In this document: positions 5,124 through 53,198 of the stretch, piece by piece
Layout of the letters: every line of letters begins with the position of its first letter
Position numbering within the stretch: the stretch's first letter is position 1
Assembly (NCBI GenBank): GCA_964561935.1
Contig: CAZLQX010000003.1
Location: 66,848 to 130,847 of the forward strand
From: an uncultured Holophagales bacterium
Lineage (GTDB): Bacteria; Acidobacteriota; Thermoanaerobaculia; UBA5066
DNA length: 64,000 nt
Direction of reading: 5' to 3'
Notes under the pieces: generated by a model
What the model saw: only the letters and a program-made list of their open reading frames with translations
Told to the model about the DNA's origin: nothing
The model's database searches: none
Made by a program: the position numbers and the translations under genes

Positions 5124-5178
5124 GGCGGGACGATAGCGCCCGGCGGGGGCCCCGGGCCGGACTAGACTCGGAGAGGCC

Positions 5179-6690
5179 TTGCCGCCGTCCGCCGACGCCG
5201 ACCCGTCCCCCGTCGAGGGTCGTCTCTCGGAGGCCGAGGAGCGCTTCGAGAGGAGGCGGCGGAGCCTCGGCCTCCCCCTCGGTCCGGCGCTCTTCGCGCT
5301 TCTCCTCGCGTTCCCTCCGGAGGCCCTCGCCCCGTCCGCCGCGCGTCTCCTCGCCGTCGTCGCGTGGGTCCTCGCCTGGTGGGTCACGGAGGCCGTCCCT
5401 CTCCCCGCGACGGCCCTCCTCGGCCCCGCCCTCGCTGTCCTCCTCGGCGTCGTCCCCGCGAAGGAAGCGTTCGCGCCGTTCGGCGACCCGATCATCTTCC
5501 TCTTCCTCGGGTCGTTCCTCCTCGCGGGCGCGATGGCGGCCCACGGCCTCGACCGGCGGATCGCCCGCGCGATCCTCAGCGCCCGCGCGGCGAGCGCCTC
5601 GCCGTTCCGCGTCGTCGTGACCTTCGTCGGCCTCACGGCGGCGCTCTCGATGTGGCTCTCCAACTCGGCGACGACGGCGATGCTCGCGCCGGTCGCCCTC
5701 GGGGCGCTCGGGACGCTCGGCGGGGGAGAGAGCCGGCCCCGGCTCGCGCGCCCTCTCCTCCTCGCCTGCGCCTACGGGGCGTCGATCGGCGGGATCGGCA
5801 CTCCCGTCGGCTCGCCGCCGAACCTCGTCGCGATCGGCCAGCTCGAGGCGCTCGCGGGCGTCCGCGTCGGCTTCGTCCCGTGGCTCCTCGTCGCGTTCCC
5901 GGTGATGCTCGCGATGCTCGTGGGGACGGTCCTCGTCCTCGGGCTGCGGTTCGGACGGACGCGCGCCGCCGAGGCGACGACCGGCGCGGGGGCCGGCGCG
6001 CCCGCGCCGGAGCCCGCGGGCCCGGCGCAGAGAAGCGTCGCCTTCGCCGTCCTCCTGACGGTCGCGGGGTGGGTCGGACCGGGCGTCGTCTCCCTCGTCC
6101 TCGGCCCGGAGCACCCCTCCGCCGCGGCGCTCGCGCGGGCGCTCCCGGAGGGGGCCGTCGCCGTCCTCGGCGCGGGGCTCCTCTTCGTCCTCCCCGGCGG
6201 GCCGGGGCGTCGCGCCCTCACGTGGCCGGAGGCGGCGCGGATCGACTGGGGGACGCTCCTCCTCTTCGGCGGCGGCCTCTCGCTCGGAAGCGCGATGTTC
6301 CGCACGGGGCTCTCCGAGGCGCTCGGCCGCGGGATCGTCGACGCGACGGGAGTCACGACGCTCGCCGGCCTCACCGTCGTCTTCTCGGTCTTCTCGATCT
6401 ACTTCACCGAGGTGACGTCGAACACGGCCGCCGCGACGATGCTCGTCCCGCTCGCGATCGCGAGCGCGCGGGCGGCGGGGGTCTCGCCCCTCGAGCCGGC
6501 CCTCGGCTGCGCGCTCGGCTGCAGCATGGCCTTCATGCTCCCGGTCGCGACCCCGCCGAACGCGATCGTCTACGGCACGGGGCTCGTCCCTATGCCGTAC
6601 CTCGTGAGGAGCGGCTTCCTCCTGAACCTCGTCGCGAGCGTCGTCGTGCCGGCGGGCGTCCTCCTCCTCGTCCCTCTCGTCTTCCGGTAG
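5179..6690 (+). CDS. DASS/SLC13 family divalent anion:Na+ symporter (CitT/ArsB superfamily permease)
   Basis: 503 aa polytopic membrane protein. Contains the SNxATxAM motif twice (SNSATTAMLAP and TSNTAAATMLVP), which is typical of DASS permeases. Confidence 0.8.
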   Translation: MPPSADADPSPVEGRLSEAEERFERRRRSLGLPLGPALFALLLAFPPEALAPSAARLLAVVAWVLAWWVTEAVPLPATALLGPALAVLLGVVPAKEAFAPFGDPIIFLFLGSFLLAGAMAAHGLDRRIARAILSARAASASPFRVVVTFVGLTAALSMWLSNSATTAMLAPVALGALGTLGGGESRPRLARPLLLACAYGASIGGIGTPVGSPPNLVAIGQLEALAGVRVGFVPWLLVAFPVMLAMLVGTVLVLGLRFGRTRAAEATTGAGAGAPAPEPAGPAQRSVAFAVLLTVAGWVGPGVVSLVLGPEHPSAAALARALPEGAVAVLGAGLLFVLPGGPGRRALTWPEAARIDWGTLLLFGGGLSLGSAMFRTGLSEALGRGIVDATGVTTLAGLTVVFSVFSIYFTEVTSNTAAATMLVPLAIASARAAGVSPLEPALGCALGCSMAFMLPVATPPNAIVYGTGLVPMPYLVRSGFLLNLVASVVVPAGVLLLVPLVFR

Positions 6691-39576: not shown

Positions 39577-40881
39577 CTATCGACCCTCCAGCGCCGCGAC
39601 GACCGCCTCGAGGGAGGCGGGGAGGCTCCGGGCGGGGTTCGCGTAGCGCGCGCTGCTCCCGTGGTACCTCACGGCGGCTCCCGAGAACTTGATCGCGTGG
39701 GCCGTCGCGACGACGACGACGGTCTCGTCCCTTCCGATCGCCCCCTCGCGCCTCAGCTTCGCCGCGCCCGCGAGGGCGACGGCGGAGTTCGGGCAGATGG
39801 CGAGGCCGTGCCGGTTCGCGAGGGCCGCGGCCTCGAGGAGCTCGGCCTCGGTGACGCGCGTGACGGCGCCGTTCGAGAGCTCGATCTCTCGCCGCGCCTT
39901 CGGGTGCGAGACGGGCGCGCCGATCCGGATCGCCGAGGCCTCCGTCTCGTCCGCGGTCCGCGTGACCCGCTCGGCGAAGCCGGTGAGGAAGGAGCGGTAG
40001 AACGGGTCGGCCGCCTCGGCCTGAGCCCCGGCGATCCGCGGACGCTTCCCGATGACGCCGAGGTCGAGCCACTCGCGGATCCCCTTGCCGATCGCCGAGA
40101 CGTTGCCCGCGTTCCCGACCGGGACGACGAACCAGTCGGGGACCTCCCAGCCGAGGTCGTGGATCGCCTCCTGCCCGATCGTCTTCTGCCCCTCGATCCG
40201 CACCGGGTTTTTCGAGTTCAGCAGGTAGACGGGGCGCGTGCGTGCGAGGTCCGCGACGATCCGCATGCATCCGTCGAAGTCCGTCGCGAGTCCCAGGGTG
40301 AGAGCGCCGTGGTGGAGCGCCTGAGAGAGCTGCTCTCCCGTGATCTTCGCCTCGGGGAGGAGGACGACGGCGCGCATTCCCGGCACCTCGGCCGCGTAGG
40401 AGGCGAGGGCGGCGGAGGTGTCGCCCGTCGAGGCGCAGACGACGTCGCTGCGGCCGAGCTTCCGCGCCCAGGAGACGCCGACCGTCATGCCGCGGTCCTT
40501 GAACGAGAGGGTCGGGTTCTCCCCCTCGTGCTTGACGAAGAGGCGCGCGAGGTCGAGCTCTTTCCCGAGCTCGACGCAGCGGTAGAGACGCGTCCCGCCC
40601 TCGGGCTTGCTGACGATCTCCCCCGGCGCGAGCGCCGGGAAGACGTGCTCGCGGTAGCGCCAGACGCCGCTCCGCTCGAACGCCGGCGTCTCACCGCCCG
40701 GCAGCGCCGAGCGCCGCCGGTCGAAGAGGTCGCGCCACTCGCGGCCCGACATCCCGAACGAGGCGAGGTCGTGGAGGACCTCGAGGAGGCCGCCGCACGA
40801 GGGGCACTCGGTGAGGACCTCCTCGATGCCGTGGGGGGCCCCGCAGCCGAGACAGGCGAGGCGGGAGAGGGGCGCCGCCAC
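39577..40881 (-). CDS. thrC: threonine synthase
   Basis: Contains the PLP motif NPTLSFKDRG and shows overall ThrC similarity. Confidence 0.85.
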   Translation of the reverse strand: MAAPLSRLACLGCGAPHGIEEVLTECPSCGGLLEVLHDLASFGMSGREWRDLFDRRRSALPGGETPAFERSGVWRYREHVFPALAPGEIVSKPEGGTRLYRCVELGKELDLARLFVKHEGENPTLSFKDRGMTVGVSWARKLGRSDVVCASTGDTSAALASYAAEVPGMRAVVLLPEAKITGEQLSQALHHGALTLGLATDFDGCMRIVADLARTRPVYLLNSKNPVRIEGQKTIGQEAIHDLGWEVPDWFVVPVGNAGNVSAIGKGIREWLDLGVIGKRPRIAGAQAEAADPFYRSFLTGFAERVTRTADETEASAIRIGAPVSHPKARREIELSNGAVTRVTEAELLEAAALANRHGLAICPNSAVALAGAAKLRREGAIGRDETVVVVATAHAIKFSGAAVRYHGSSARYANPARSLPASLEAVVAALEGR

Positions 40882-41845: not shown

Positions 41846-43248
41846 CGCGTCACCGCCGCGTGGAGCGCCTTCACGGAGGCCGCTCGGTCCCTCTCGTCGA
41901 CGACGAAGGAGATGTTGCACTCGGAGGAGCCCTGGGCGATCGCTTCCACGTTCACTCCCGCGCGCGCGACGGCGGCGAAGACCTTCGCCGCGATCCCGAC
42001 GGTGCCGCGCATCCCGTCCCCGACGGCCGCGACGACGGCGACGGGCGAACGCGCCGCCACGCCGTCGATCGAGCCGACGAGCTTCTCGTACCGGAACTCG
42101 TCCGCGAGCGCGGCCGCGACCCGCGCGCGGTCCGCCTCGGGGAGGACGAGGGCGATGTTCTGCTCGGAGGAGGCCTGGGAGATCATGACGACGGAGGCGC
42201 CGAGCCGCGCCGTCGTCTGGAAGACGCGCGCCGCGATCCCCGGGACGCCGCTCATCCCCTTCCCGTCGAGCGAGAGGAGGCAGAGGCCGGAGACGGAGGT
42301 CACGGCCCGGATGCCGGGACGCGGGTCCCCCTTCTCGGAGATCGTCGTCCCGGGGCCGTCCGGGGCGAACGAGTTCCGGATGACGAGAGGGATCCGGGCG
42401 GCGATCGCGGGGAGGACGGCGGGGAAGTGGAGGACCTTCGCGCCGAAGTAGGTCATCTCCGCCGCCTCGCGGTACGAAAGGCGCGTCAGGAGCCGCGCGC
42501 CCGGGACGATCCTCGGGTCGGCCGTCAGGACGCCGTCGACGTCGGTCCAGATGACGACCTCGCGCGCGGAGAGGGCCGCCCCGAGGAGCGCCGCCGTCGT
42601 GTCGGAGCCGGAGCGGCCGAGCGTCGTCGTCTCGCCCTCCGCGGAGCGCGCGACGAACCCGGTCACGACCGGGACGACCCCGCGCGCGAGGAGGCGCCGG
42701 AGGACGCGTCGGACGCGGGGGTCGGAGCGCTTCCGGTCGCACGTCGCCGCGCCGTGCCGCCCATCGGTGACGAGGAGCTCCCGCGCGTCGACGGGGCGGG
42801 CCGGGACGCCGAGAGCCGAAAGGGCCGCCGCGAGGAGCGGCGTGGAGAGCCGTTCGCCGAAGGAGGCGACGAGGTCGGTCACGCGGGGCGTCCGCTCGCG
42901 CAGGAGCGAGATGCCGGCGAGCGCGGTCTCGAGCTCGGCGAGCGGGGCGGGGTCGAAGCGGACGGCGGAGCCCGTGGCGGCGGCGACGCCCGCGGCCGCG
43001 GCGCGGTGCCGCTCGCCGAGGGCGGCGACGGCGCGGCGGGCCGGGGCGAGGCGTCCCCGCTCGGCGTCGTGCGCGGCGCCGAGGAGGACGTCGGTCACGC
43101 CTCCCATGGCCGAGGCGACGGCGACGAGGCGGCGCCGCCGCGCGGCCGCGGCGAGGAGGCCTGCGGCGCGGACGATCCTCTCCGCGTCGCCGAGCGACGT
43201 GCCGCCGAGCTTGTGGACGGCGACGGGGCGGTCACTCGCTCTCGGCAA
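41842..43248 (-). CDS. lysC: aspartate kinase with C-terminal ACT domains
   Basis: TTG start (…KLGGTSLGD). Has an AA_kinase fold and two ACT domains. It overlaps the upstream transposase-like gene by 17 nt. Confidence 0.85.
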   Translation of the reverse strand: MPRASDRPVAVHKLGGTSLGDAERIVRAAGLLAAAARRRRLVAVASAMGGVTDVLLGAAHDAERGRLAPARRAVAALGERHRAAAAGVAAATGSAVRFDPAPLAELETALAGISLLRERTPRVTDLVASFGERLSTPLLAAALSALGVPARPVDARELLVTDGRHGAATCDRKRSDPRVRRVLRRLLARGVVPVVTGFVARSAEGETTTLGRSGSDTTAALLGAALSAREVVIWTDVDGVLTADPRIVPGARLLTRLSYREAAEMTYFGAKVLHFPAVLPAIAARIPLVIRNSFAPDGPGTTISEKGDPRPGIRAVTSVSGLCLLSLDGKGMSGVPGIAARVFQTTARLGASVVMISQASSEQNIALVLPEADRARVAAALADEFRYEKLVGSIDGVAARSPVAVVAAVGDGMRGTVGIAAKVFAAVARAGVNVEAIAQGSSECNISFVVDERDRAASVKALHAAVTR

Positions 43249-44173
43249 GGAGCCTCTTCTCCAGCTCGTCGAGCGTCGGACGGAGCGCCTTCCAGCGCCC
43301 CTCCCTGACGTCGCCGAGGACGTTGCTGACGCGCGCCGGCCTCACGCCGAACGCCTCGCCGACCTCGCGGCCGGAGAGGCCGGTGAGCCGCCGCGAGAGC
43401 CAGATCGCGGCGACCTTCGCCGCGTGGGCGTCGGACCGCCCGAGGCCGGTCTCGGGGACGCCGAAGCGCGCCGAGACGGCCGACTTCACGCGCGAGAGCT
43501 CGACGGCGCCGGGCCGGGGACGGCCCGCGGCAGGCGGCGTGAGGAGGAGCGCGCGGGCCTCGCGGGCGAACTCGGGGCTCCCGACGACGAGACCCGGGAG
43601 GGCGCGCTCGCGAAGCGGCCGGATGTTGCGGGTCCCCGAGACGAGCCGCCGGTAGCGCTCGCGCGCCCGCGGCCGGGCCGGGGAGAGGCGCCGGAGCGTC
43701 GCGTCGACCGTGAGCCAGGCGGGCCGCTCGGAGAGCCCGGCGATGGCGGGGGCGCTCGAGTAGCGCCACTCGAGGGCGGCGCGCGCGAGGCGCGCCCTCA
43801 CGGGGGCGAGGGCGACGACGCGCGCCGCCTCGAGGAAGGCCGTCGCGGGGTCGACGAGGAGCGAGCGGAAGCGCCCGTCGAAGAGCGCCCCGGAGCGGCC
43901 GTGCCGGCGGTTGAAGGCCTGGGCGTAGCGCCCCCCGAGGGCGCGCATGCCGGCCGAGAGGTTCGGCGCAGGCGTCTCGAGGAGGAGCTCGACGGAGGAG
44001 CCGAGGAGGGCGTAGGCGTGGACGAGCCAGCCCCGCTCCTCGGCGGTCCGTCCGAGGTCGAGGAGGAAGCGGTCCCGGTCCGCGTCATCCCGGAAGAGCG
44101 GGCTCCGCTCCGGCGCGCGCCATGCGACGTGGTGCACCGCGCCTGCGAGCTCGAGACGGGGAGGGCGGGACAT
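43232..44173 (-). CDS. Y1 (IS200/RayT, COG1943-like) transposase-derived protein fused to DnaA-C-type HTH; HUH and Tyr motifs substituted
   Basis: N-terminus reads HHVAWRAPERSPLFRDDADRDRFLLDL…AYALLGSSVELLL…GGRYAQAFNRRHGRSGALFDGRFRS. The C-terminus reads …AAKVAAIWLSRRLTGLSGREVGEAFGVRPARVSNV (Bac_DnaA_C-like). Confidence 0.7.
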   Translation of the reverse strand: MSRPPRLELAGAVHHVAWRAPERSPLFRDDADRDRFLLDLGRTAEERGWLVHAYALLGSSVELLLETPAPNLSAGMRALGGRYAQAFNRRHGRSGALFDGRFRSLLVDPATAFLEAARVVALAPVRARLARAALEWRYSSAPAIAGLSERPAWLTVDATLRRLSPARPRARERYRRLVSGTRNIRPLRERALPGLVVGSPEFAREARALLLTPPAAGRPRPGAVELSRVKSAVSARFGVPETGLGRSDAHAAKVAAIWLSRRLTGLSGREVGEAFGVRPARVSNVLGDVREGRWKALRPTLDELEKRLLAESE

Positions 44174-44251: not shown

Positions 44252-46825
44252 ATGGACGACGGGACGCGCGCGCGAGGGGTGAGGTGCGAGGCGCCGCCCG
44301 GCTGGGCGGAGGCGACCGCGCGCCGCGGCGCCACGGACCCTCTCGCCGCGCGGCTCGCCGAGGGAGGGCGGCTCGCCCCGCTCCGCTCCCTCCGCCTCGA
44401 GCCGCGACGCGGAGCGGGAGCGGGGACGGCGCGCCTCCACCTCCCCGAAGGGTCGGGGGACGTCGTGGTCGTCCTTCGCCAGCCGTCGGGCGCGCTCTCG
44501 ATCCACCGTCCCGAGGCGGGTGGGGCGTCGCGGCGCGGGGGCGCGACCGTCGACCTCCCCCTCCTCGCGCCGCGGGCCCGGCGTGCCGGGGAGGCGCCCC
44601 GCGGAGCCGTCGTCCTCGTCCTGGCCGCCGCCGCGCGCGTCGAGGCGCGCGCCGCGCGAACGCTCGCCCGCGTCTTCGAGGAGGCCGCGTTCCGGAGGGC
44701 CGGGCTCGTCGAGGGGCTCGTCCACGCCACGCCCGAGGGCTTCCGCGAGGGCCGGCTCGCCGCCGCACCGAGGGACCTCCTCGCGGCGCCCCCCGCGCGG
44801 AACCTCCTTCTCCTCCACGGCACCTTCTCGTCCACGGCCGCCGCGTTCGCGGGCCTCGCCCGGAGCGGCGTCCTCCCGGCGCTCGCGCCCCGCTACGGCG
44901 GCCGCGTCGTCGGATTCGACCACTTCACCGTGAGCCGGACGCCCGGGGAGACCGCGCGGAGGCTCGCTTCCGCGCTGCCGGCCGGCGGGATCTTCCTTTT
45001 CGACGTCGTCGCCCACTCGCGCGGGGGCCTCGTTCTCCGGACGCTCGTCGAGAGCCCCGGCCGGGTCGGGCCGTGTGCCGGCCGGTTCACCGCGGGGAGC
45101 GTCGTTCTCGCCGGGGTCCCGAATCTCGGCACGCCCCTCGCCTCACCCGACCGCTGGGAGCTCGCGCTCGCGGGCTGGCTGAACCTCTTCGACCTCCTCC
45201 CTCCCGCTCCCGCGCCGCTCCTCGGCGCCTTCGTCGTGGAGGCGCTCCTCTGGCTCGCGCGTCGCGTCACGACGCTCCTCCCCGGCCTCGCCGCGATGGA
45301 CCCGCACGGCGGGACGATCGCGGAGCTCGGCCGGAGCGCCCGGCCGGAGGCCTACTCGGCGATCGCGGCGCGCCACGAGGCGCGCGGAGCGCTCGCGCTC
45401 CGGCTCCTCGACGCCGGCGTCGGCTGCTTCTTCGGAGAGCCGAACGACCTCGTCGTCCCGACGGACGGCTGCGCGTCGCTCTCGCGGGACGGCACCGCAC
45501 GCGTCGCCGACGATCGGGTCGCGCTCCTCGGAACGAGCGGGGCGCCGGCGAGCCACTTCGACCTCCTCTCCTGCGAGGAGGGGGCGGCGTTCGTCGTCGC
45601 CGCGCTCGGCGGCGGGGGCGGGCCGGGCGGTCGCCGGGGAGCGCGGAGGTCGGCTCCCGGCGAGGACCGGGCGGTGCGGCAGGCGCGGCGAAGGCCGGCC
45701 TCCGCGGCTCGCGGCGGCGCGTCGCCCGCGCGTCTCGGCGAGCCGCGGCGCGAGGCGCTGGAGCTGACCCTCCTCCCCGGAGACCGGCGCGACGCGACCG
45801 CCCTCCTGTTCGCCAGATTCGGCGCGGCGCGCGCCGTTGCGGAGGTTCCGCGGAAGGGAGAGGCGTGGAGGGAGATCATCCGGGGACACGAGCGCCTCCG
45901 CGCCCACTACGACGGCGACGGGCGGCCGCTCCCGCCGGCGGCCGCGCTCGAGCGCTGGGGGGCGCTCCTCTTCGAGACCCTCTTCCCCGGCGAGGTGCGG
46001 AGGCTCTGGGACGCCGCGCGCGGGGCCGCGGGGGGCGTCCCGACGGACGTCGTCTTCACGTCGCTCCTCGACTGGGTCGCCGACAAGCCGTGGGAGCTCG
46101 CGTTCGACCCTCACCGCCGCGCGTGGCTCGCCGCGACCGAGGCGTGCTTCGTGAGGAACGTCGTCACGGCGATCCCGTGCGAGGCGCGGCCGCGCCGCCG
46201 CGGGAAGCTCGCGATCGTCGTCGCGGCGGCGCAGCCGGCGGGCCTGACGCCCCTCTCCTGGGAGGAGGAGGCCGAGGCGGTCCGGGCGGGGCTCGCGCCG
46301 CTCTCCGCCGCCGGCCTCGCCCGGATCCGCGTCGAGCGGGCCGTGACCGTCGAGGCGCTCCACCGTCTCGTCGCGGACGGGCCGTGCGACGTCCTCCACT
46401 TCGTCGGCCACGGCGCGTGGGACGCGGAGCGGAGGGTCGGGGCGCTCCTCTTGGAGTCCGCCTCCGGAGGCGCGGCGCCCGTCGAGGCGCCCGTCCTCCG
46501 ATCGCTTCTCGCGGGACGGGGTCTTTCGCTCGTCGTCCTGAACGCCTGCCAGAGCGCCCGCGGGAGCCGGTCCGACCTCGCCCGGGGGGTCGCGCCCGCG
46601 CTCGTCGCCGCGGGGGTACCGGCCGTCGTCGCGAACCAGTTCAGCGTCCTCGACGCCGCTGCGCTCGTCTTCGCGCGGGAGCTCTACCGGTCGCTCGCCC
46701 TCGGGCGGGCGCTCGGCGACGCGGCGCGCGAGGCGCGGCTCGCGGTGAGGTGCGACGCCGCGTGCGGGCCTCTCGACTGGGCCGTGCCGGTCGTCTACGC
46801 GCGAGACCCCGGCGCCGTCCTCTGA
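44252..46825 (+). CDS. fusion protein: N-terminal alpha/beta-hydrolase (lipase/PGAP1/DUF676-like, AHSRGG nucleophile elbow) plus C-terminal CHAT (caspase-like His-Cys) domain
   Basis: ATG with GAGGG upstream. N-terminal region has LLLLHGTFSST…DVVAHSRGGLV. C-terminal region has KLAIVVAAAQP…LHFVGHGAWD…LVVLNACQSA. Confidence 0.75.
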   Translation: MDDGTRARGVRCEAPPGWAEATARRGATDPLAARLAEGGRLAPLRSLRLEPRRGAGAGTARLHLPEGSGDVVVVLRQPSGALSIHRPEAGGASRRGGATVDLPLLAPRARRAGEAPRGAVVLVLAAAARVEARAARTLARVFEEAAFRRAGLVEGLVHATPEGFREGRLAAAPRDLLAAPPARNLLLLHGTFSSTAAAFAGLARSGVLPALAPRYGGRVVGFDHFTVSRTPGETARRLASALPAGGIFLFDVVAHSRGGLVLRTLVESPGRVGPCAGRFTAGSVVLAGVPNLGTPLASPDRWELALAGWLNLFDLLPPAPAPLLGAFVVEALLWLARRVTTLLPGLAAMDPHGGTIAELGRSARPEAYSAIAARHEARGALALRLLDAGVGCFFGEPNDLVVPTDGCASLSRDGTARVADDRVALLGTSGAPASHFDLLSCEEGAAFVVAALGGGGGPGGRRGARRSAPGEDRAVRQARRRPASAARGGASPARLGEPRREALELTLLPGDRRDATALLFARFGAARAVAEVPRKGEAWREIIRGHERLRAHYDGDGRPLPPAAALERWGALLFETLFPGEVRRLWDAARGAAGGVPTDVVFTSLLDWVADKPWELAFDPHRRAWLAATEACFVRNVVTAIPCEARPRRRGKLAIVVAAAQPAGLTPLSWEEEAEAVRAGLAPLSAAGLARIRVERAVTVEALHRLVADGPCDVLHFVGHGAWDAERRVGALLLESASGGAAPVEAPVLRSLLAGRGLSLVVLNACQSARGSRSDLARGVAPALVAAGVPAVVANQFSVLDAAALVFARELYRSLALGRALGDAAREARLAVRCDAACGPLDWAVPVVYARDPGAVL

Positions 46826-46834
46826 CTGCGAGCC

Positions 46835-47467
46835 TCAGGCGCCGAGGGAGCCCTTGAGCGCCGCGAGCTCGGCCTCGACGGAGGCGAGCCTCTCCTCGAG
46901 CGCGAGGAGACGGGCCTCGATCGCCGAAGGGCCCGCGGGAGGGAGGGGTCGGCCCGCGGCCGCGACCTCGGGCGCGCCGGAGACGAGGTGGGCCCAGCGC
47001 GCCTCCTTCTGCCCGGGCCGGCGCGGCAGCTCCACCACGAGCGGCTCGGGGTGCGCCGCCATCCCGCGGAGGATCTCCTCGGCCGCCGTGGCGGACGGGA
47101 AAGCGTGCATCCGCTCCGCCCGCGCGCGCAGCTCGGCCGCGGTCTGCGGGCCGCGGAGGAGGAGGAGGGCGAGGAGCGCCTTCTCGGGGCGCCCCGCCTG
47201 CCACTTCTGGTCGAGGTTGTGCTCCCACTTTTCGACCCGCCCGCCCGTCACCTTCCAGGCGAGGACGAGCTCGCGGAGGCGGTCGAGAGCGGCCGTCACG
47301 GCTTCCGCCGACAGCTCCGTGACCGGCTCGCGCGACGTCTTCTGGTTGCAGGCGGCTAGGAGCGCGGGGAGCGTGAGCGGGTAGAGGTCGGGCGTCAGCT
47401 GCTCCTTCTCGAGGAGCGCGCCGAGGACGCGGACCTCGTCGGCATCGAGGAGGCGGGGGAGCCGCAC
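46835..47467 (-). CDS. YceH/DUF480 (UPF0502) family protein
   Basis: N-terminus LDADEVRVLGALLEKEQLTPDLYPLTL is typical of YceH. Has a C-terminal coiled coil. Confidence 0.75.
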   Translation of the reverse strand: MRLPRLLDADEVRVLGALLEKEQLTPDLYPLTLPALLAACNQKTSREPVTELSAEAVTAALDRLRELVLAWKVTGGRVEKWEHNLDQKWQAGRPEKALLALLLLRGPQTAAELRARAERMHAFPSATAAEEILRGMAAHPEPLVVELPRRPGQKEARWAHLVSGAPEVAAAGRPLPPAGPSAIEARLLALEERLASVEAELAALKGSLGA

Positions 47468-47471
47468 CCCT

Positions 47472-48626
47472 TCAGCCCTTCCGCGCCGCGACGGCCGAGA
47501 TGAAGAAGCTCGGGTAGCCCTTCGCGATCTCCTCGGCGTCGGGGAGGAACGTCACGTCGACGAAGCCGGCCCTCCGGAGCGACTCGCGCCAGGCGGCGGG
47601 CGTCAGGAAGCCGTGGGTCGGGCGGGCGACGGGGTCGAGCGTGACCCGCGTGAAGCTCTCGAGGAGGTCGAAGACGAGCTCGACGTAGATCGGCTGGTCG
47701 TTCCCGAGGGGCCGCACGCACTCGGAGACGACGAGCCAGCCGCCCGGCGCGAGCGCCTCCCGGGCCTCGCCGAGGACCGAGGCGAGGTCGGGGGCGACGT
47801 GGAAGCAGTTCACGGAGTAGACGGCGTCGAACGCGCCGGCCCCGGCCCCCTGCGCGGCCCAGGGCTTCGTCATGTCGAGCTTCGCGGCCTCGACGGCGAC
47901 GCCCGGGGCCGCCGCGGCGCGGGCCGCGCGCTCGCCGCGCCGGAGGAAGGTCGGGACGACCTCGGTGAAGAGGTAGCGCGCGGGGCGCGCGCCGAGCCGC
48001 GCGAGGGCCGCCTCGGCGGCGCTCCCGGCGCCGCCGCCGATCTCGAGGACCCGCCCGCCCGACTCCGGGAGGACGCGCGAGAGGGCGAGCGCGCCGAGCG
48101 TGTTGTTGATCGCGTAGAGGAGGTTGCGGTTCGAGAAGTAGCGGAACCAGAGCGGGAGCCGGTCCGGCCGGAAGAGGATCTCCTCTCCCGTCCTTTCCCC
48201 CGAGAGGAACGCGGGGCACTCCTCGACGAGGATCCGGACGGCCTCTCCCGCGACGGCCGAGTCGGGGTCCGTCGCGGCGAGCTCCGCCTCGAGGGCGGCG
48301 AGGTCGCCCGGGTCGGAAGGCCCTGGGAAGTACGCGTCCTCCTCCGCGCGGAGGTGCCCGGCGGCGGCGAGCTTGCGGTGGACGAAGGCGACGAGCGGGA
48401 GGCTCCTCGGCGCCCAGCCGCGCGAGGCGTGGAGCGCCGCGGGGACCGTGCCGGGCGCGACGGGCCAGGCCCCGGCCCGCCGCAGGACCTCGGCGCAGGC
48501 GGCGTCCGCGAGCTCGTCGAAGACCTCGCTCGCGCGAAGGAACGGCAGCGTGAAGAGGGCGCGCGCCTCGGCGTCCGGGATGCGCGCGGAGAGGGCGGGG
48601 AAATGCTCCTCGGGCGTCCTCGACAT
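47472..48626 (-). CDS. class I SAM-dependent methyltransferase
   Basis: Contains motif I VLEIGGGAGSAA plus downstream MTase motifs. It is 5 nt from the YceH gene. Confidence 0.75.
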   Translation of the reverse strand: MSRTPEEHFPALSARIPDAEARALFTLPFLRASEVFDELADAACAEVLRRAGAWPVAPGTVPAALHASRGWAPRSLPLVAFVHRKLAAAGHLRAEEDAYFPGPSDPGDLAALEAELAATDPDSAVAGEAVRILVEECPAFLSGERTGEEILFRPDRLPLWFRYFSNRNLLYAINNTLGALALSRVLPESGGRVLEIGGGAGSAAEAALARLGARPARYLFTEVVPTFLRRGERAARAAAAPGVAVEAAKLDMTKPWAAQGAGAGAFDAVYSVNCFHVAPDLASVLGEAREALAPGGWLVVSECVRPLGNDQPIYVELVFDLLESFTRVTLDPVARPTHGFLTPAAWRESLRRAGFVDVTFLPDAEEIAKGYPSFFISAVAARKG

Positions 48627-48661
48627 CGGGCGGCATGATACGGATTCGTAGAATCGCGGGA

Positions 48662-49315
48662 ATGAAGATCTTCCTCGTCCGCCACGGCGAGAGCGAAGGG
48701 AACCTCGGCGGGACGCTCCAGGGGTGCCGGCTCGACACGCCGCTGACGCGTCGCGGGCGGCGGCAGGCGGAGGCCCTCGCCGTCCGCCTCGCGGAGGCGG
48801 AGATCGACGACGTCGTCGCGAGCCCGATGGCCCGAGCCCGGGAGACGGCCGAGATCTGCGCGGCGCCCCACGGGCTCGCGGTCCGGCTCGACCTCGAGCT
48901 CGTCGAGTTCGACTGGGGCGTCTGGACCGGACTGCCGCTCGACGACGAGATGGACCGAAGCGTCGCGGAGCTCCGCGCGAAGTGGCGCTCGGGCGACGTC
49001 GACGCGGCTCCGCCGCGCGGCGAGAGCCCGCTCCTCGCGGGAGGGCGCGCCGCGCGGGTCCTTGCGCGACTCAGGGCCGTCCGGCCCGCGGCGCCCCTCG
49101 TCGTCGCGCACGGCCGCTTCAACAGGATCCTGATGGCGACGCTCCTCGGGCGCGATCTCTCCCGGATGGACGAGGTCCGCCAGAGGAACGGGTCGATCTC
49201 CGTCTTCGAATGGGACGGCGACGGCGCCGCGCGGCCCGTCGTCCTCGACGACGTCTCGCACCTCGGGGGCGACGTCTCGACGCCGACCGGGAAGGTCGAC
49301 TGGGTGAGGGCCTGA
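48662..49315 (+). CDS. histidine phosphatase (phosphoglycerate mutase-like) family protein
   Basis: Start re-set to MKIFLVRHGESEGN (the RHG catalytic motif). An alternative start is ATG 48635. Confidence 0.75.
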   Translation: MKIFLVRHGESEGNLGGTLQGCRLDTPLTRRGRRQAEALAVRLAEAEIDDVVASPMARARETAEICAAPHGLAVRLDLELVEFDWGVWTGLPLDDEMDRSVAELRAKWRSGDVDAAPPRGESPLLAGGRAARVLARLRAVRPAAPLVVAHGRFNRILMATLLGRDLSRMDEVRQRNGSISVFEWDGDGAARPVVLDDVSHLGGDVSTPTGKVDWVRA

Positions 49316-49337
49316 CGCGCCGCGGCGATCTACGGGA

Positions 49338-49518
49338 CGCGCCGCATGCCGCGGGGAGGCTCGTGGCGAGCCTCCCCGATCCGCTCCGGCTTCCCGATCG
49401 AGGGGAGGCGCCGGAGGCGCCGCGGGGAGGCTCGTGGCGAGCCTCCCCGATCCGCTTCGGGGTTCCCGATCGAGGGGAGGCGCCGGAGGCGCCGCGGGGA
49501 CGCTCGTGGCGAGCCTCC
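49338..49518. repeat. REP-like tandem repeat array: about 2.5 copies of a 71-72 bp unit, each with a perfect 11-bp stem / 3-nt loop hairpin
   Basis: Unit: GCCGCGGGGAGGCTCGTGGCGAGCCTCCCCGATCCGCT(C/T)CGG(C/GG)TTCCCGATCGAGGGGAGGCGCCGGAGGC. Copies start at 49338, 49409 and 49481, and the third is partial with one stem mismatch. The array lies between convergent genes. Confidence 0.7.
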
Positions 49519-49528
49519 CCGATCCGCT

Positions 49529-50854
49529 CTATGCCGAGAGCCGCGGGTTCAGGGCGATCGCCTTGTTGAGCGCCTCGACCGCCGCCTCGAACTTCTTGAG
49601 CCCCTCGTAGGTCGTCTTCATCGCGTACCACGCCTCGGCGTAGTCGCTCTTGAGGGCGACGGCCTTCTTCAGGTGCCCGAGCGCCTCGTCGAAGGCGAGC
49701 TCCCGGTTCGCGGCGAGGCCGAGCCCGTAGTGCGCTTCCGCGCAGGAGGCGTCGCCGTCGAGCGCCGCCCGGAATGCCTCGGCGGCCTCGGGGAGCTTCC
49801 CTTCCTCCAGGAGCGCCATCCCGTGCGCGGCGTGGACGGGGGCGCTCTTCGGGTCGATCTCGACGGCCCTCTCGAACGTCTTCTGGGCGTCGCGGAACTT
49901 CTTCATCCGCCCGTAGGCGAGGATCGCGCACGCGGGGAGGAGCGGGTCCTTCGGGAACTTGCGCGAGGCCGCCTGGGTGGTCTCGACCGTTCCCTGGAAG
50001 TCGCCCGACTCGAGGAGCGCCCGGGCCGTCTTCAGGTGGAGCTCCGGGTCGTCCTTGTGCTGCTCGAGCGCCGTCCGGAGCGGCTTCACCGCCGAGGCGA
50101 AGTCCTTCGCTTCGTAGAGGGCAAGGCCGAGCTTCCGGTGGACGGGAGAGGTGTCGGGCGCCGTCTTCGCCGAGATCTTGTAGTTCTCGAGGGCGGTCTT
50201 CAGCTTCCCGCCGAGCTTCATGAGGTCGCCGAGGTTCTCGAAGAGGAGAGGGTCCGTCGAGGTGCGCGCCGCCTTCCTCAGGCGGAGCCGGGCCCGCTCC
50301 GCGTCGCCGCGCGAGTAGTCGACGAGGGCGAGCATGTGAAGGAGAGGCGCGTCCTCCACACCTCCCTGCTCGGCCCACGACTCGACGTCCTTCAGGATCT
50401 TCCGCGCCTCCTCGGTGAGGGTCTTCGGGTGGTCCCCGGCGAGCTCCTCGAGCCGCTCGGGGAAGCCGTCGGCGGCGAGGCGCTGGCGGAGCGTCTCGAA
50501 GGCCTCCCGGGCCTTCCGGCCGAAGAAGAAGCGCTGGGTCGTCTGCTCCCGTTTCGCCCTGTCGGCGAGGGAGTCCCTCTCGGCCGTGGCCGCCGCGAGC
50601 TGCTCCTCGGCAGCGGCGAGGCGGGCCTCGAGGTCCGCGGACCTCTCGGCGAGGGCGGTCCGTTCCGCAGAGACGGTCTCCAGCTCGCGCGCGATCCGCG
50701 CCCTTTCGGTCTCGACCTCGGCGAGACCTTCCCGGAGCTTCGAGGCTTCCTCGGTCGAGGAGGTCTTCAGGGCGGAGAGGGAGCGGAAGAGGACGACGGC
50801 GGTGACGACGGCCACGGCCGCGAGGGCGAGGGCGACGAGCAGTCCTGTCGACAA
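49529..50854 (-). CDS. membrane-anchored coiled-coil / TPR-repeat protein
   Basis: TTG start with GGAGG 6 nt upstream. Has an N-terminal TM segment, a coiled coil, then 6 or more TPR units. Confidence 0.65.
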   Translation of the reverse strand: MSTGLLVALALAAVAVVTAVVLFRSLSALKTSSTEEASKLREGLAEVETERARIARELETVSAERTALAERSADLEARLAAAEEQLAAATAERDSLADRAKREQTTQRFFFGRKAREAFETLRQRLAADGFPERLEELAGDHPKTLTEEARKILKDVESWAEQGGVEDAPLLHMLALVDYSRGDAERARLRLRKAARTSTDPLLFENLGDLMKLGGKLKTALENYKISAKTAPDTSPVHRKLGLALYEAKDFASAVKPLRTALEQHKDDPELHLKTARALLESGDFQGTVETTQAASRKFPKDPLLPACAILAYGRMKKFRDAQKTFERAVEIDPKSAPVHAAHGMALLEEGKLPEAAEAFRAALDGDASCAEAHYGLGLAANRELAFDEALGHLKKAVALKSDYAEAWYAMKTTYEGLKKFEAAVEALNKAIALNPRLSA

Positions 50855-51053
50855 GGGGCTCCTCCGCGCGAAAGGAACGGCGCGACTCGGGATGTTACCT
50901 CCGGGAGCGCCCTCTGCGGAACGGAGAAGCCCTGTCCGGGCGGAGGGTCGTGCGGCGCGGTCGAGCGCTCCGCCGCGCCCGGCGGCGAACCGGCGCCAGG
51001 GGGCAGGTGGCGGCCGGAGGCCGCCGTTAGAATGCGGCGTGGCTCGCACCAGG

Positions 51054-53198
51054 ATGTCGCCCCGCTGCCTCGCCGTCGCCCTCGCCGCCCCGCTCGCGCT
51101 CCTCGCCCCGGCCCTGGCCGCCCAGGAGGTCAAGGGACGGGTCGTCGTCCTCGGCTTCGACGGGGCCGACCACCGTCTCGTCTCCCAGTACATCGCGGAG
51201 GGGAAGCTCCCGAACCTCGCGCGGCTCGCCCGGGAGGGAAGCTTCTCGCCCCTCCGGCCGACGATCCCCGCCCAGACGCCGGTCTCCTGGTCGACCTTCT
51301 CGACCGGGCTCTCCCCGGGCCGGACGCAGATCTTCGACTTCCTGAAGAGGGACCCGAAGACCTACCGGCCCGAGTTCGCCGTCGCGACGGAGGGGAAGAG
51401 GCGCTTCCTCCTCGGGAGCGGGAACCGGGCCGGCGCCGCGGCCCTCGGGGCGCTCCTCGCGTTCCTCCTCGTCTTCCTCCTCGGCCGCTTCACGGTGAAG
51501 CGGACGAAGCCCGCGGCCCTCGTCGCACTCGTCCTCGCGGCGCCCGCCGGCTTCTTCTCCTACCGCTTCGGCGGCCTCCTCCCCGAGTCGCTCCAGACCG
51601 TCCACAACAACCGGAAGGGGACGCCGTTCTGGGAGGTCGCCGGTAAGAGCGGGATCCGGTCGGTGGTCCTCCATGTCCCGGTCACCTTCCCGGCCGTCGA
51701 CTTCGACGAGGGGCGGCTCCTCTCCGGGCTCGGCGTCCCCGACGTGCGGGGGCGGATCGGCACGCCGAGCTACTACACGTCCGACCCGTTCTTCTCGCCC
51801 CGGAACAAGAACGAGTTCTCCGTGGAGCTCGTCCGCCTCGAGTCGAACGTCGGGACGATCCGGACGGAGGTCTTCGGCCCCTACAACAAGCTCTTCGGCG
51901 AGCCCCCGGTCATCAGGACGCCGATGACGCTGACGGTCCTCCCGGACGGCGGGCGCCTGAGGATCGAGCCGAAGGGGAGCGAGCCGGTGACGCTGAAGCC
52001 GGGCGAGTGGTCCCCCTGGGTCACCTTCACGTTCGAGTTCAACCCGGTCGTCAAGCTCTCCGGCATCGGGCGCTTCCACCTCGCGAAGCTCGCGCCGGAG
52101 ATCGAGCTCTACCTCTCGCCGATCCACTTCAACCCGGCGAAGCTCCCGCCGGGCGTCAAGATCACGGCCCCCGGCGGCCTCGCGAAGGACCTCGCGAAGC
52201 GCTTCGGCCTCTACAAGACGATGGGCTGGTCGATCGACACCTGGTCGATGAGCGAGGAGACGATCGACGAGCCGACGTTCCTCGACGACGTCACCTTCAC
52301 GGTGCAGCAGTACCGGAAGATGATGGACGGGCTCCTCGCCGAGAAGGACGTGAAGCTCTACGTCCAGGTCTACGAGTTCACGGACCGGGTCGGCCACGTC
52401 ATGTGGCGCTTCCTCGACCCGACGCACCCGGCGTACGACGCGGAGAAGGCGGCGATGTTCGGTCCCTCCGTGGAGCGGAACTACGTCCAGATGGACGAGA
52501 TCGTCGGCGACGCGCTGAAGGAGCTCGGGCCGGACGACCTCCTCCTCGTCTGCTCCGACCACGGCTTCTCGAGCTGGAGGCGGTCGATCAACTACAACAC
52601 CTGGCTCGTCGAGCACGGCTACCTCGCGCTCAAGGGGGGCGACGAGAAGCAGGCGGACCTCGAGCAGCTCTTCGGCCAGGGGGAGTTCTGGCCGAACGTC
52701 GACTGGTCGCGGACCAAGGCCTACTCGATGGGCCTCGGCGAGATCTACGTGAACCTGAGGGGCCGCGAGTCGCAGGGGATCGTCGAGCCGGGGGCCGAGT
52801 ACGACGCTCTCCGGCAGGAGATCCGGGTGGGGCTGATGGCGATCGTCGACGAGGCGACCGGGCGCCGCCCCGTCGAGCGCGTCTACACCCGCGAGGAGGC
52901 CTACGGCTCGTTCGACCCGAACGTCATCCCGGACATCTTCGTGACGAACAGCGAGGGCTACCGGGTCTCGTGGCAGGCGAGCCTCGGCGTCGTCACGCCG
53001 GAGCTCTACGAGGAGAACGTCCAGGTCTGGTCGGGCGACCACTGCTCGGTCGACCCCGACGTCGTCCCCGGGATCCTCCTCTCGAGCCGGCCGCTCCGGA
53101 AGGAGCCCCGACCGAACATGGCCGACGTCCCCGCGACGATCTACAAGGCGCTCGGCCTGACGCCGCCCGAGCCGCTCGACGGGGAACCGCTCTTCTGA
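51054..53198 (+). CDS. secreted alkaline-phosphatase-superfamily protein (type I phosphodiesterase/nucleotide pyrophosphatase-like) with internal hydrophobic insertion
   Basis: Has a signal peptide. AP-superfamily metal and nucleophile motifs are present: VVLGFDGADH, PTIPAQTPVSWSTFSTG, LLVCSDHGF. Confidence 0.75.
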   Translation: MSPRCLAVALAAPLALLAPALAAQEVKGRVVVLGFDGADHRLVSQYIAEGKLPNLARLAREGSFSPLRPTIPAQTPVSWSTFSTGLSPGRTQIFDFLKRDPKTYRPEFAVATEGKRRFLLGSGNRAGAAALGALLAFLLVFLLGRFTVKRTKPAALVALVLAAPAGFFSYRFGGLLPESLQTVHNNRKGTPFWEVAGKSGIRSVVLHVPVTFPAVDFDEGRLLSGLGVPDVRGRIGTPSYYTSDPFFSPRNKNEFSVELVRLESNVGTIRTEVFGPYNKLFGEPPVIRTPMTLTVLPDGGRLRIEPKGSEPVTLKPGEWSPWVTFTFEFNPVVKLSGIGRFHLAKLAPEIELYLSPIHFNPAKLPPGVKITAPGGLAKDLAKRFGLYKTMGWSIDTWSMSEETIDEPTFLDDVTFTVQQYRKMMDGLLAEKDVKLYVQVYEFTDRVGHVMWRFLDPTHPAYDAEKAAMFGPSVERNYVQMDEIVGDALKELGPDDLLLVCSDHGFSSWRRSINYNTWLVEHGYLALKGGDEKQADLEQLFGQGEFWPNVDWSRTKAYSMGLGEIYVNLRGRESQGIVEPGAEYDALRQEIRVGLMAIVDEATGRRPVERVYTREEAYGSFDPNVIPDIFVTNSEGYRVSWQASLGVVTPELYEENVQVWSGDHCSVDPDVVPGILLSSRPLRKEPRPNMADVPATIYKALGLTPPEPLDGEPLF

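Follow-up and report, generated by a model that had tools for sequence, protein, structure and literature searches.

The tandem hairpins at positions 49326-49528 of the 64-kb window (by which we mean the whole stretch of DNA that was analyzed) form a three-unit copy of a composite-hairpin repeat family that is dispersed, low in copy number, previously uncatalogued and restricted to one clade of uncultured Thermoanaerobaculia/Holophagales Acidobacteriota. On balance we favor the view that the family is a new REP-like element of gene 3' ends, which originated from a mobile element, was expanded by slippage and has a putative role at the 3' end of mRNAs.

The array in the window

Tandem Repeats Finder placed the array at 49348-49528 with a period of 72, 2.5 copies, 96% matches and a score of 334, which makes it by a wide margin the strongest tandem array in the window and agrees with the about 2.5 direct copies of a 71-72 bp unit reported in a preliminary description of this DNA. 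The biologically meaningful strand is the minus strand. Read in this direction, the array starts 8 nt past the TAG stop of a TPR gene, comprises two full units (72 and 71 nt) followed by a terminal hairpin-only unit, and fills the 213-nt spacer (49316-49528) to a convergent His_Phos_1 gene, whose stop lies 37 nt past the last hairpin. The features of the region are as follows, with scores of the covariance model R1 for the units.

43232..44173, minus strand: Y1 (RayT/TIRYT-type) protein, predicted to be catalytically dead, with a DnaA_C-like HTH (GC3 0.96; NCBIfam REP_Tyr_transpos)
46826..46834, no strand: empty site of the element family, a 9-nt spacer between the convergent CHAT and DUF480 genes (tblastn; base-level comparison)
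46835-47467, minus strand: DUF480 gene (Pfam DUF480 for the orthologue)
48635..49315, plus strand: histidine phosphatase family gene, convergent neighbor (Pfam His_Phos_1, E=3e-49)
49326..49385, minus strand: unit 3, truncated; AGC-GGATC lead, perfect H1 (49353-49377), degenerate H2/H3 (R1 52 bits, E=7e-9)
49388..49456, minus strand: unit 2, complete; AGC-GGATC lead, H1 (49424-49448), H2 (49407-49421), H3 (~49392-49405) (R1 89.2 bits, E=2.4e-16)
49460..49528, minus strand: unit 1, complete; AGC-GGATC lead, H1 (49496-49520, one mismatch), GC, H2 (49479-49493), H3 (~49464-49477) (R1 82.6 bits, E=5e-15, full length 1-69)
49529-49531, minus strand: TAG stop of the TPR gene, 8 nt before the first H1
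49529..51193, minus strand: TPR-repeat protein gene, host of the array, 554 aa (ORF list; Pfam TPR_11, TPR_1 and others)

The 25-nt hairpin GGGGAGGCTCG-TGG-CGAGCCTCCCC is exact at 49353-49377 and 49424-49448, and the copy at 49496-49520 carries one mismatch (GGGGACGC). The stem reaches 12 bp once the closing C:G pair is counted. Within the window the hairpin is confined to the array, and 100 shuffles of the window gave no match. The second element, GGCGCCGGAGGCGCC, occurs twice (49407-49421 and 49479-49493), as had been described, and a third small hairpin (CCCC...GGGR) that had been missed also belongs to the unit; the third unit is truncated after the hairpin, and only its H1 aligns well to the R1 model. 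The convergent intergenic setting and the distances to the CHAT gene (44252-46825) and the RayT-like gene (43232-44173) had been given correctly. Outside the array, R1 found nothing above 19 bits in the 64-kb window; the borderline match at 40748-40832 (18.8 bits) is coding-like sequence and not an element. The window contains no tRNA or tmRNA genes, and a tRNA/tmRNA origin of the repeat was dropped.

Family size and unit structure

A collection scan that required the exact stem, in assemblies that are mostly fragmented MAGs, returned exact copies of the hairpin at 70 loci in 17 Thermoanaerobaculia/Holophagales assemblies, about 16 of them with the full unit. This refutes the local duplication of a terminator, which the preliminary description would have favored for a hairpin unique to this site. 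The family comprises 119 units in 73 arrays, all of them intergenic, with 1 unit in 50 arrays, 2 in 14, 3 in six, 4 in two and 14 in one, and a species-representative assembly contains 1-9 exact-hairpin arrays. The covariance model detected no additional diverged sites in the 64-kb window or about 500 kb of flanks. At curated thresholds, Rfam returned nothing for the window and four array-bearing loci, and in a permissive search of 48900-49900 the only matches, to miRNA and CRISPR-DR, were at chance level.

On the minus strand of the window the order is stop codon, NNN-GGATC, H1 (12 bp, loop CCA), GC, H2 and H3. H1 is a 27-nt palindrome, H2 is GGCGCC-NNN-GGCGCC with one compensatory variant, and H3 is CCCC...GGGG. 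The unit is strand-specific and about 72 nt long, with periods of 64-74 nt across the family. In 81 aligned units the paired cells amount to 94% compared to about 50% in slid controls, and one H2 pair is changed from C:G to G:C in 20 of these units. A count of wobble pairs (16 G.U vs 36 A.C) does not favor the sense strand and is, if anything, the opposite of the expectation; wobble pairs thus give no signal for RNA rather than single-stranded DNA as the functional form.

GGATC is present at the stem foot in 95 of 119 units and the bases upstream of it read R-R-Y, which is why GTGG occurs in a minority of units only. At its 5' end the unit has a conserved segment, C-N-G-R-A-R-Y-GGATC, that shares bases with the stop codon of the gene upstream, so H1 begins 8 nt after the stop, and internal unit junctions read C-G-G-R-A-R-Y-GGATC at the same positions as at the stop codon. 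The conserved tetranucleotide C-T/G-G-A lies at -12 to -9: CnGA starts at -12 in 34/65 first units and at -13 to -10 in 10/31 internal units, 7 nt from the stem. Multi-unit arrays (23/73) are all head-to-tail; the apparent orientation exception, L011, is a terminal palindromic H1 whose orientation is undefinable. Other arrays, too, often end in a unit that breaks off after H1. As the unit is without GTT it has no GTTRRRY core, and an attC/integron site was rejected by direct reading, the host genes being syntenic housekeeping genes.

Position relative to stop codons

In 61 of the 73 arrays an ORF of at least 80 codons on the same strand ends within 60 nt upstream, with a distance from stop to H1 of 8 nt in 40 arrays and of 6-9 nt in 55. 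The 8-nt spacer (40/61 arrays) extends across 19 families. The host genes form 24 independent gene families with unrelated functions, and a regulon-specific 3' UTR element was rejected on the basis of the 11 annotated host families, which are unrelated. The stop codon is TGA in 22/24 families compared to a background of about 50%, preceded by C at -1 in 16/19 families (p=8e-7) and followed by A at +4 in 14/19 families (p=4e-5). This C-TGA-A context is specific to the element and matches the C-G-G-R-A of the internal junctions. One gene-family site (4 loci) is an exception and is not anchored to a same-strand stop. An 'ATG' abutting the element in L021, L029, L034 and L065 is not a gene start (GC3 about 0.5). 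The downstream neighbor is convergent in 48/66 arrays and co-directional in 18/66.

Gain, loss and constraint at orthologous sites

The orthologous TPR sites, at which the His_Phos_1 gene is also the convergent partner, contain 0, 1, 2 or 3 units, and across the family the copy number at orthologous sites ranges from 0 to 14. The native TPR stop position is kept in 13 orthologous loci, whether the element is present or absent. Similarly, the CHAT/DUF480 site, which is empty in the window, carries the element in four other genomes, right after the same native TGA. The element leaves the native stop codon and the C-terminus of the protein unaltered: filled and empty orthologous sites share both, and a role as source of the stop codon or in protein truncation was therefore rejected. 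Two 'empty' sites of close relatives may be collapsed remnants and not virgin targets, so that they do not define exact insertion boundaries.

Most insertions are common to several species and thus give no sign of recent mobility. Both H2 variants are found within single genomes, yet their distribution follows the gene family, from which we infer that inheritance at the sites is vertical and the insertions are old. The low copy number, 1-9 exact-hairpin sites per genome, also speaks against mobility.

To obtain an unbiased sample, the constraint on H1 was measured on loci found through protein similarity alone. Pairwise identity of H1 is 98.2%, compared to 88.7% for the adjacent CDS overall and 76.2% at third codon positions, which corresponds to 0.46 differences per 25 nt in H1 against 5.9 expected at the synonymous rate. 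H2 and H3 show decay. Concerted evolution as the cause of H1 identity is disfavored, as the H2 variants coexist in genomes and track loci.

Comparison with known repeat families

REP/BIME elements are GTAG- and CGTC-tagged palindromic repeats (Nunvar, 2010, PMC2817692; Di Nocera, 2013, PMC3733652), which are located less than 20 bp from ORF 3' ends with a GTAG tag that often supplies the stop codon (PMC3733652) and usually exceed 100 copies per genome (PMC2817692). The acidobacterial element is likewise a short (20-40 bp), G+C-rich, extragenic palindrome that is dispersed in the genome; it is found no more than 20 bp from the 3' end of an ORF, and the genes on its two sides are in most cases convergent or co-directional. 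In both cases the tag beside the palindrome overlaps the stop (TAG of GTAG in REPs, C-TGA here), the elements are single or clustered, clusters vary among relatives and compensatory changes keep the stems. The earlier label REP-like is apt insofar as this is a dispersed family with 70 exact loci, whereas four defining REP/BIME features fail. The foot of the stem is GGATC and not GT(A/G)G or CGTC, with a CnGA-like tag 7-8 nt off; the units are head-to-tail only and never alternate as in BIMEs; about 1-9 sites per genome contrast with more than 100; and, unlike in REPtrons, no RAYT gene with intact HUH/Tyr flanked by inverted REPs occurs at the 70 loci or in the window. Furthermore, the unit is a composite of three hairpins with about 72 nt, and the hairpin is identical across many species, whereas a REP is specific to a species or its RAYT.

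A second comparison is with the hairpins with a 5' CnGA foot at class 3 Y1 (HuH) genes of Acidobacteria and Planctomycetes (Quentin, 2018, PMC6006769). Compared by description, both belong to the same phylum and form REP-like secondary structures, and the C-T-G-A or C-G-G-A upstream of our element would fit CnGA. In contrast, those hairpins bracket class 3 Y1 genes, with about 600 copies in Solibacter usitatus, whereas our element has a low copy number, is not next to a Y1 gene and carries its CnGA-like tetranucleotide 7 nt off the stem.

In organization the family resembles the mycobacterial MIRUs: both have head-to-tail units, tens of nucleotides long, at a few dozen intergenic loci that are dispersed, both are polymorphic in copy number at each locus, and in both the insertion is fixed in register with a codon of the gene next to it (PMC12548453). 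However, MIRUs are anchored at start codons and carry a small, translationally coupled ORF with -4 nt spacing, whereas here the anchor is the stop codon, which is itself unchanged, the periods are not multiples of three and hairpins make up the unit.

With intrinsic (Rho-independent) terminators the element shares a very stable G+C hairpin just past the stop and enrichment between convergent genes. It differs in sequence conservation across loci and species and in its multi-hairpin tandem units, and it lacks a U-tract on either strand, which sets it apart from canonical intrinsic terminators. At other loci the units are not followed by a T-run either, and no terminator-like site was detected on either strand of 48600-50000. 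The proposal that the array acts as a stacked bidirectional terminator is plausible by position, with 48 of 66 arrays between convergent genes.

Origin, dynamics and possible role

IS200/IS605-type Y1 enzymes insert at target tetranucleotides. In a similar way, a small non-autonomous mobile element of the REP/PATE kind may have inserted in one orientation beside a CnGA/CTGA tetranucleotide, and CTGA at a stop codon would be the commonest harmless target; such targeting would account for the constant offset as well as for the excess of C-TGA-A. The arrays would then grow and shrink by replication slippage or unequal recombination. The element is presumably transcribed as the 3' end of the upstream gene, where its hairpins could cap the mRNA against 3' exonucleases and/or block convergent read-through, as for REP/BIME. 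H1 is conserved at the sequence level far beyond the needs of a hairpin and more strongly than the neighboring coding DNA, which implies a putative trans-acting factor that recognizes H1 as its specific reader.

This reader could also act on DNA. According to this explanation, which we consider unlikely, the H1 duplex or an extruded cruciform is bound by a putative sequence-specific protein, and orientation and offset are relics of insertion; the candidates would be the dead Y1-HTH protein, nucleoid proteins and, by analogy with E. coli BIME-2, gyrase. The invariance of H1 in sequence beyond structure and the absence of a wobble bias toward the RNA strand are in line with a DNA-level site, and E. 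coli BIMEs are binding sites for gyrase, IHF and Pol I (PMC6006769; PMC3733652). The compensatory H2 change points instead to intrastrand pairing, and the strict co-orientation with the upstream gene and the enrichment at convergent 3' ends also speak against it.

It had been suggested that the array is tied to the nearby RayT-like gene. The product of 43232-44173 matches NCBIfam REP_Tyr_transpos with E=1.4e-8 and 34.7 bits, which is under the 80-bit cut-off, and a PDB sequence search gave spurious bromodomain matches only. Throughout the orthologue group SSVE stands in place of N-H-Y-H and VVALAP in place of Y-I-V-L-N-P. Judged by these residues it is a conserved Y1-HTH protein with both HUH histidines and the catalytic Tyr lost in all orthologues, and its description as RayT-derived and catalytically dead was right. 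We regard it as improbable that the repeat is a classical REP/BIME substrate of a RayT transposase with a functional tie to this gene. H1 is a short, dispersed, extragenic palindrome beside ORF 3' ends, the Y1-derived gene is only 5.2 kb away and its orthologue group is present in the same clade as the element; moreover, TIRYT-associated repeats carry GGGGWSAS (PMC3733652) and the H1 arm GGGGAGGC is one base off this motif. On the other hand, GGGGWSAS is under-represented in the window (16 observed vs 38 expected), the catalytic residues are lost, R1 detected no hairpins flanking the gene in the window, and credible TIRs or inverted repeats around it are absent. The gene is near the element at 2 of 70 loci only, both syntenic. 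Six-frame translations of the 70 loci (73 arrays) contain no intact HUH...Y signature, and a regular expression for the class 3 Y1 signature (NHVH ... YV[VI]xEQ) gave 0 matches in those of all loci and the window. For Y1-HTH genes of subclass 2.1, an absence of REPs from the neighborhood has been reported (PMC6006769), and the missing GT(A/G)G head, the head-to-tail order and about 1-9 copies per genome instead of more than 100 (PMC2817692) do not fit either. Altogether we found no evidence of a link between repeat and gene.

A variant of this idea, for which we see little probability, is that a RayT/TIRYT-type transposase and its hairpin substrate were domesticated together, with H1 as the site recognized by the dead Y1-HTH protein, which is clade-specific and encoded 5 kb from the array. 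In this case the protein would attach to hairpins of single-stranded DNA or of RNA that lie exactly 8 nt past stop codons, would leave them uncut and, together with them, would label the 3' ends of a limited number of genes for the host. Hairpin and protein are restricted to one and the same clade and both evolve under purifying selection, and the invariance of H1 calls for a sequence-specific reader; the positive support is this co-distribution and nothing beyond.

It is similarly doubtful that the family is a functionless selfish or neutral minisatellite, in which remnants of an extinct mobile element persist at harmless spots and expand by slippage. The range of 0-14 units at orthologous sites, the decay of H2 and H3, the truncated terminal units and the lack of a functional theme among host genes would be expected from such remnants. 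The conservation of H1 in the unbiased sample speaks against neutrality, and the H2 variants show no genome-wide homogenization that could mimic it.

The fixed 8-nt spacer in 19 families might also suggest a modulator of translation termination: with the stop codon in the A site, a 12-bp G+C hairpin 8 nt past the stop would be at the mRNA entry channel of the ribosome, where it might delay termination, favor read-through or rescue, or adjust how much protein is made. In E. coli, expression is reduced by REPs that lie no more than about 15 nt from a stop, and the MuLV read-through pseudoknot has a spacer of 8 nt; both would agree with such a modulator. REPs have also been implicated in translation regulation in work cited by Quentin (PMC6006769). 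Nevertheless, we consider this very unlikely, as a tag overlapping the stop explains the spacing equally well, the host genes are unrelated, and unit periods of 64-74 nt that are not multiples of three leave no conserved reading frame past the stop.

A local duplication of a site-unique terminator or a CRISPR-like array is practically out of the question: the hairpin is found only here within the window, the period of about 72 nt is within the CRISPR range and a weak chance match to CRISPR-DR29 reached 15 bits (gathering score 39), but 70 loci share the same hairpin and flanks, a U-tract and Rfam matches at curated thresholds are missing, and the 'spacers' are parts of the unit conserved between units and loci, which rules out CRISPR.

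REP-like elements have been studied almost entirely in Proteobacteria. The new REP-like family adds a different design from an uncultured acidobacterial clade, with a head-to-tail unit of three hairpins, a CTGA-type tag coincident with the stop and a very low copy number. Its few, old and vertically inherited copies are a favorable case to separate function from selfish spread. If it is true that the offset reflects Y1-type targeting of CTGA, the family would be a clean case of a mobile element that uses stop codons as safe harbors. In addition, 0-14 units per locus provide a ready VNTR marker for these organisms, and gene callers should anticipate a repeat 8 nt after stops. The repeat also breaks short-read assemblies, and contig L071 ends within an array.

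The array and its repeat unit

Tandem Repeats Finder confirmed the tandem hairpin units of 71-72 bp in a convergent intergenic spacer that the preliminary description had reported. The array at 49348-49528 (period 72, 2.5 copies, 96% matches, score 334) is the top-ranking tandem array of the whole window, whose G+C content is about 74%, and fills the 213-nt spacer between two convergent genes. The 25-nt hairpin GGGGAGGCTCG-TGG-CGAGCCTCCCC starts at 49353, 49424 and 49496, the last copy with one mismatch; no further copy was found in the 64-kb window outside the array and none in 100 shuffles of the window. R1, a covariance model of the repeat unit, recovered three matches, and all others in the window reached at most 19 bits, the best of them within coding-like sequence:

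48635-49315, plus strand, histidine-phosphatase gene, convergent neighbour of the array
49326-49385, minus strand, truncated unit (R1, 52 bits)
49388-49456, minus strand, unit (R1, 89 bits)
49460-49528, minus strand, unit (R1, 83 bits)
49529-51193, minus strand, TPR gene on the other side of the array

Rfam gave no match, neither in a permissive search nor at curated thresholds (the latter applied to the window and four other arrays), and the window contains no tRNA or tmRNA genes.

When all copies are set in one orientation, the flanks of the hairpin are conserved as well. In the CCA-loop orientation (minus strand of the window) the unit opens with R-R-Y-GGATC, followed by the first hairpin H1, (C)GGGGAGGCTCG-CCA-CGAGCCTCCCC(G), whose stem comprises 12 bp once the closing C:G pair is counted, and by GC. 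H2 (GGCGCC-N3-4-GGCGCC, then T) and H3 (CCCC(T)-loop-GGGG) complete the unit, and the next GGATC lies about 8 nt further on. In the alignment A1, made from 81 distinct units that are complete, 94% of the cells of this three-helix structure are paired versus about 50% when the partners are slid. As H1 served for ascertainment, its invariance within A1 proves nothing; H2 was not used in this way and shows a compensatory switch between C:G (57 units) and G:C (20 units), with a second compensatory change in one locus (L052).

A small dispersed family

A scan of the GTDB representatives, one genome per species, with the query GGGGAGGCTCG-NNN-CGAGCCTCCCC returned 70 loci with the exact stem, nearly all from MAGs labelled Thermoanaerobaculia, Holophagales or Acidobacteria, and the hairpins are often paired at 64-74 bp. 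The hairpin is thus not unique to this site. Uniqueness would have led the preliminary description to favour a local terminator duplication, and such a duplication is excluded by the hairpin's presence across species-representative genomes. Two of the 70 matches, in an Alphaproteobacteria MAG (L001, 7817-7841) and a Pyrinomonadaceae MAG (L042, 4894-4918), share the same 11-bp stem without any flank of the unit and are probably coincidental. The stem in L042 is lengthened by AAGAG/CTCTT and followed by TTATTGTT, resembling an ordinary intrinsic terminator.

A fuzzy hairpin search, from which the unit and array counts are taken, yielded 119 hairpins in 73 arrays of one (50), two (14), three (6), four (2) or 14 units (1), and the units are arranged head-to-tail in every multi-unit array. 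Each assembly holds 1-9 exact-hairpin arrays, and about 500 kb of flanking DNA searched with R1 contained no further diverged sites; the repeat family is small. A full-length unit (85 bits) was also found at L006 693-762, on a contig labelled "uncultured Gammaproteobacteria". Its upstream gene family is shared with a Thermoanaerobaculia locus (L070), and the bin label is probably wrong, the alternative being horizontal transfer.

Anchoring at stop codons

In the CCA orientation, 61 of the 73 arrays are preceded by a host gene, defined as an ORF on the same strand that has 80 codons or more and ends at most 60 nt upstream. Between the end of the stop codon and the first base of H1 there are exactly 8 nt in 40 arrays, and 55 arrays have a spacing of 6-9 nt. 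The TPR gene likewise has its TAG (49529-49531) 8 nt ahead of H1, which assigns the array in the window to this minus-strand gene. The host ORFs, 61 in all, represent 24 independent gene families without shared function (among them response regulator, HtrA-type protease, DinB, inositol monophosphatase, DUF480, DUF520, Kup transporter, HAD hydrolase, QueA, SRAP and the TPR protein), and on the downstream side 48 arrays have a convergent neighbour and 18 a co-directional one.

One family of four orthologous loci has no same-strand stop anchor (elements at L021 5036, L029 3936, L034 1014 and L065 31). Here an ATG abutting GGATC opens an ORF whose GC3 is about 0.5 and which is not a gene; a convergent gene ends about 25 nt past H3. 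At L049 a gene 3' end plus element occurs twice (5087-5155 and 5376-5444), 289 bp apart and with identical 60-nt upstream flanks, which looks like a local segmental duplication taking in the element.

The stop codon is TGA in 22 of the 24 element families versus about 50% in 418 other predicted genes from the same DNA, which served as background. C at -1 (16/19 families versus 29%, p=8e-7) and A at +4 (14/19 versus 28%, p=4e-5) are likewise enriched. First units read C-T-G-A-A-R-Y-GGATC and internal unit junctions C-G-G-R-A-R-Y-GGATC, the same positions differing essentially at -11 alone; therefore, the stop codon lies inside the conserved unit, and its TGA fills the "nGA" of a tag resembling CnGA. 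A published parallel is given by the GTAG REPs, which lie <20 bp from ORF 3' ends and whose tag often provides the stop codon (PMC3733652). The tag also recalls, by description and not by sequence, the "CnGA foot" on the hairpins that accompany class 3 Y1 genes of Acidobacteria and Planctomycetes (PMC6006769). It is conceivable that a hairpin 8 nt past the stop would meet the terminating ribosome and affect termination, but the tag explains this spacing equally well.

Gain, loss and sequence constraint

Occupied and empty orthologous sites could be compared for two genes. In both cases the protein keeps its C-terminus and its stop position whether or not the element follows; the stop codon is native. 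The window itself contains an empty site:

46826-46834, empty site, 9 nt between the DUF480 stop and the stop of the convergent CHAT gene
46835-47467, minus strand, DUF480 gene ending ...LKGSLGA-TGA, with no element after it

The same DUF480 TGA is followed by NNN-GGATC-H1 in four genomes (L017, L048, L056, L060). For the TPR/histidine-phosphatase junction, a metagenome scan was seeded with the TPR C-terminus and was hence independent of the hairpin. The downstream sequence could be read in 11 close relatives, of which nine have the element and two (L076, L078) lack it, as do both distant relatives (60% identity). The empty junctions (L078 2104-2134, L076 1948-1978) measure 31 nt each, and their spacers, especially that of L078 (ACGGTTCGAGGCGG..CCGCGCCGC..GGGGCC), look more like a collapsed unit remnant than a never-occupied site.

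Orthologous sites hold 0, 1, 1, 2, 2 and 3 units at the TPR gene and 1 to 14 at the response regulator, although MAG copy numbers may be underestimates, as short-read assemblies break at the repeat. The 14-unit array (L025 3055-4046, 71-bp period) has orthologous sites of 1-3 units elsewhere. A metagenome contig of 1611 bp (L071), whose TPR C-terminus is 100% identical to that of the window, breaks off inside the array, one and a half units in. Both H2 variants occur together in six genomes, yet are mostly uniform per gene family, indicating that copies are inherited at their sites, with neither homogenisation nor recent spread.

Comparison of genomes within the unbiased TPR set gives 98.2% identity for the first H1, versus 88.7% for the last 300 nt of the gene and 76.2% for third codon positions. 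This corresponds to 0.46 differences per 25 nt, while 5.9 are expected at the synonymous rate, and argues for strong sequence-level constraint beyond the need of a mere hairpin. H2 and H3 are subject to drift, and terminal units have often lost them.

Comparison with known systems, origin and role

The REP/BIME reading of the preliminary description holds in so far as this is a dispersed REP-like family. The stem foot lacks the REP tag, GT(A/G)G or CGTC, the units run head-to-tail and not in the alternating orientation of BIMEs, the abundance of REPs (>100 copies per genome) is not reached, and the flanked RAYT gene of a REPtron was not found. In our reading, the element works like a REP and probably arose like one. 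Like mycobacterial MIRUs, it consists of dispersed tandem units in variable number whose insertion is in register with a codon (PMC12548453), but it has no coupled ORF and is anchored to stops instead of starts. No description of the element was found in Rfam or in the literature searched; its registration to stop codons via a TGA-containing tag is of specialist interest, as is the extreme degree to which a low-copy family has conserved a 25-nt hairpin across species.

The unit is a dispersed, strand-specific and stop-anchored composite that is gained, lost and copy-variable at orthologous sites, enriched at convergent 3' ends and strongly constrained in H1. It probably originated as a small non-autonomous mobile element inserting in a single orientation beside a CnGA/CTGA tetranucleotide. 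This is modelled on IS200/IS605-type Y1 enzymes, which use a target tetranucleotide (PMC6006769). The CTGA at stop codons would be the commonest harmless target, and arrays would grow and shrink by slippage. At present, the element may be transcribed as a 3'-end structure and in this form protect the mRNA and/or reduce convergent read-through, as proposed for REPs, with a sequence-specific factor reading H1. The wobble pairs show no bias towards the sense strand, which counts against a demonstrable role at the RNA level. A stacked bidirectional terminator had also been suggested; a U-run is absent on both strands at the array, which counts against a canonical terminator.

The RayT-like gene

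The preliminary description had named a RayT-like gene as a possible partner of the array:

43232-44173, minus strand, RayT-like gene, a real gene (GC3 0.96)

Pfam did not detect Y1_Tnp in its protein; NCBIfam REP_Tyr_transpos matched residues 5-139 (E=1.4e-8, 34.7 bits, under the 80-bit cut-off) and the C-terminus shows a weak DnaA_C-type HTH. In a database search its orthologues formed a tight group of about 30 clusters from Thermoanaerobaculia/Holophagales MAGs (75-100% identity), beyond which relatives of at most 46% identity bear PF01797 and PF08299. In the alignment, these relatives have N-H-Y-H and R-Y-I-V-L-N-P where the whole group has S-S-V-E and R-V-V-A-L-A-P. The protein was thus rightly called catalytically dead, the HUH and Y..NP motifs being replaced throughout the group. 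This dead form has itself been conserved, and the clade-specific protein looks like a domesticated transposase.

A link to the array is not borne out. R1 found no hairpin within 5 kb of the gene, the gene lies near the element at only two of the 70 loci (L060 and L056, both syntenic with the window), and no locus contains an intact HUH...Y signature in any frame; array and gene share the clade only. The architecture is that of subclass 2.1.2/TIRYT, where REPs are not found near the genes and some genes are bracketed by TIRs with GGGGWSAS (PMC6006769; PMC3733652). GGGGWSAS is under-represented in the window, and no credible inverted repeats flank the gene. An imperfect 43-nt inverted repeat (43036-43078 / 44344-44386, 77% complementary) brackets it and is most likely due to chance, as its arms lie inside neighbouring coding sequence in DNA of 75% G+C. 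The conserved dead Y1-HTH protein is nevertheless of interest to specialists as a candidate reader of the element from the same clade. The adjacent plus-strand gene at 44252-46825 encodes an 857-aa protein with a DUF7379 domain (E=1e-36) and a C-terminal CHAT protease domain (E=6e-31).
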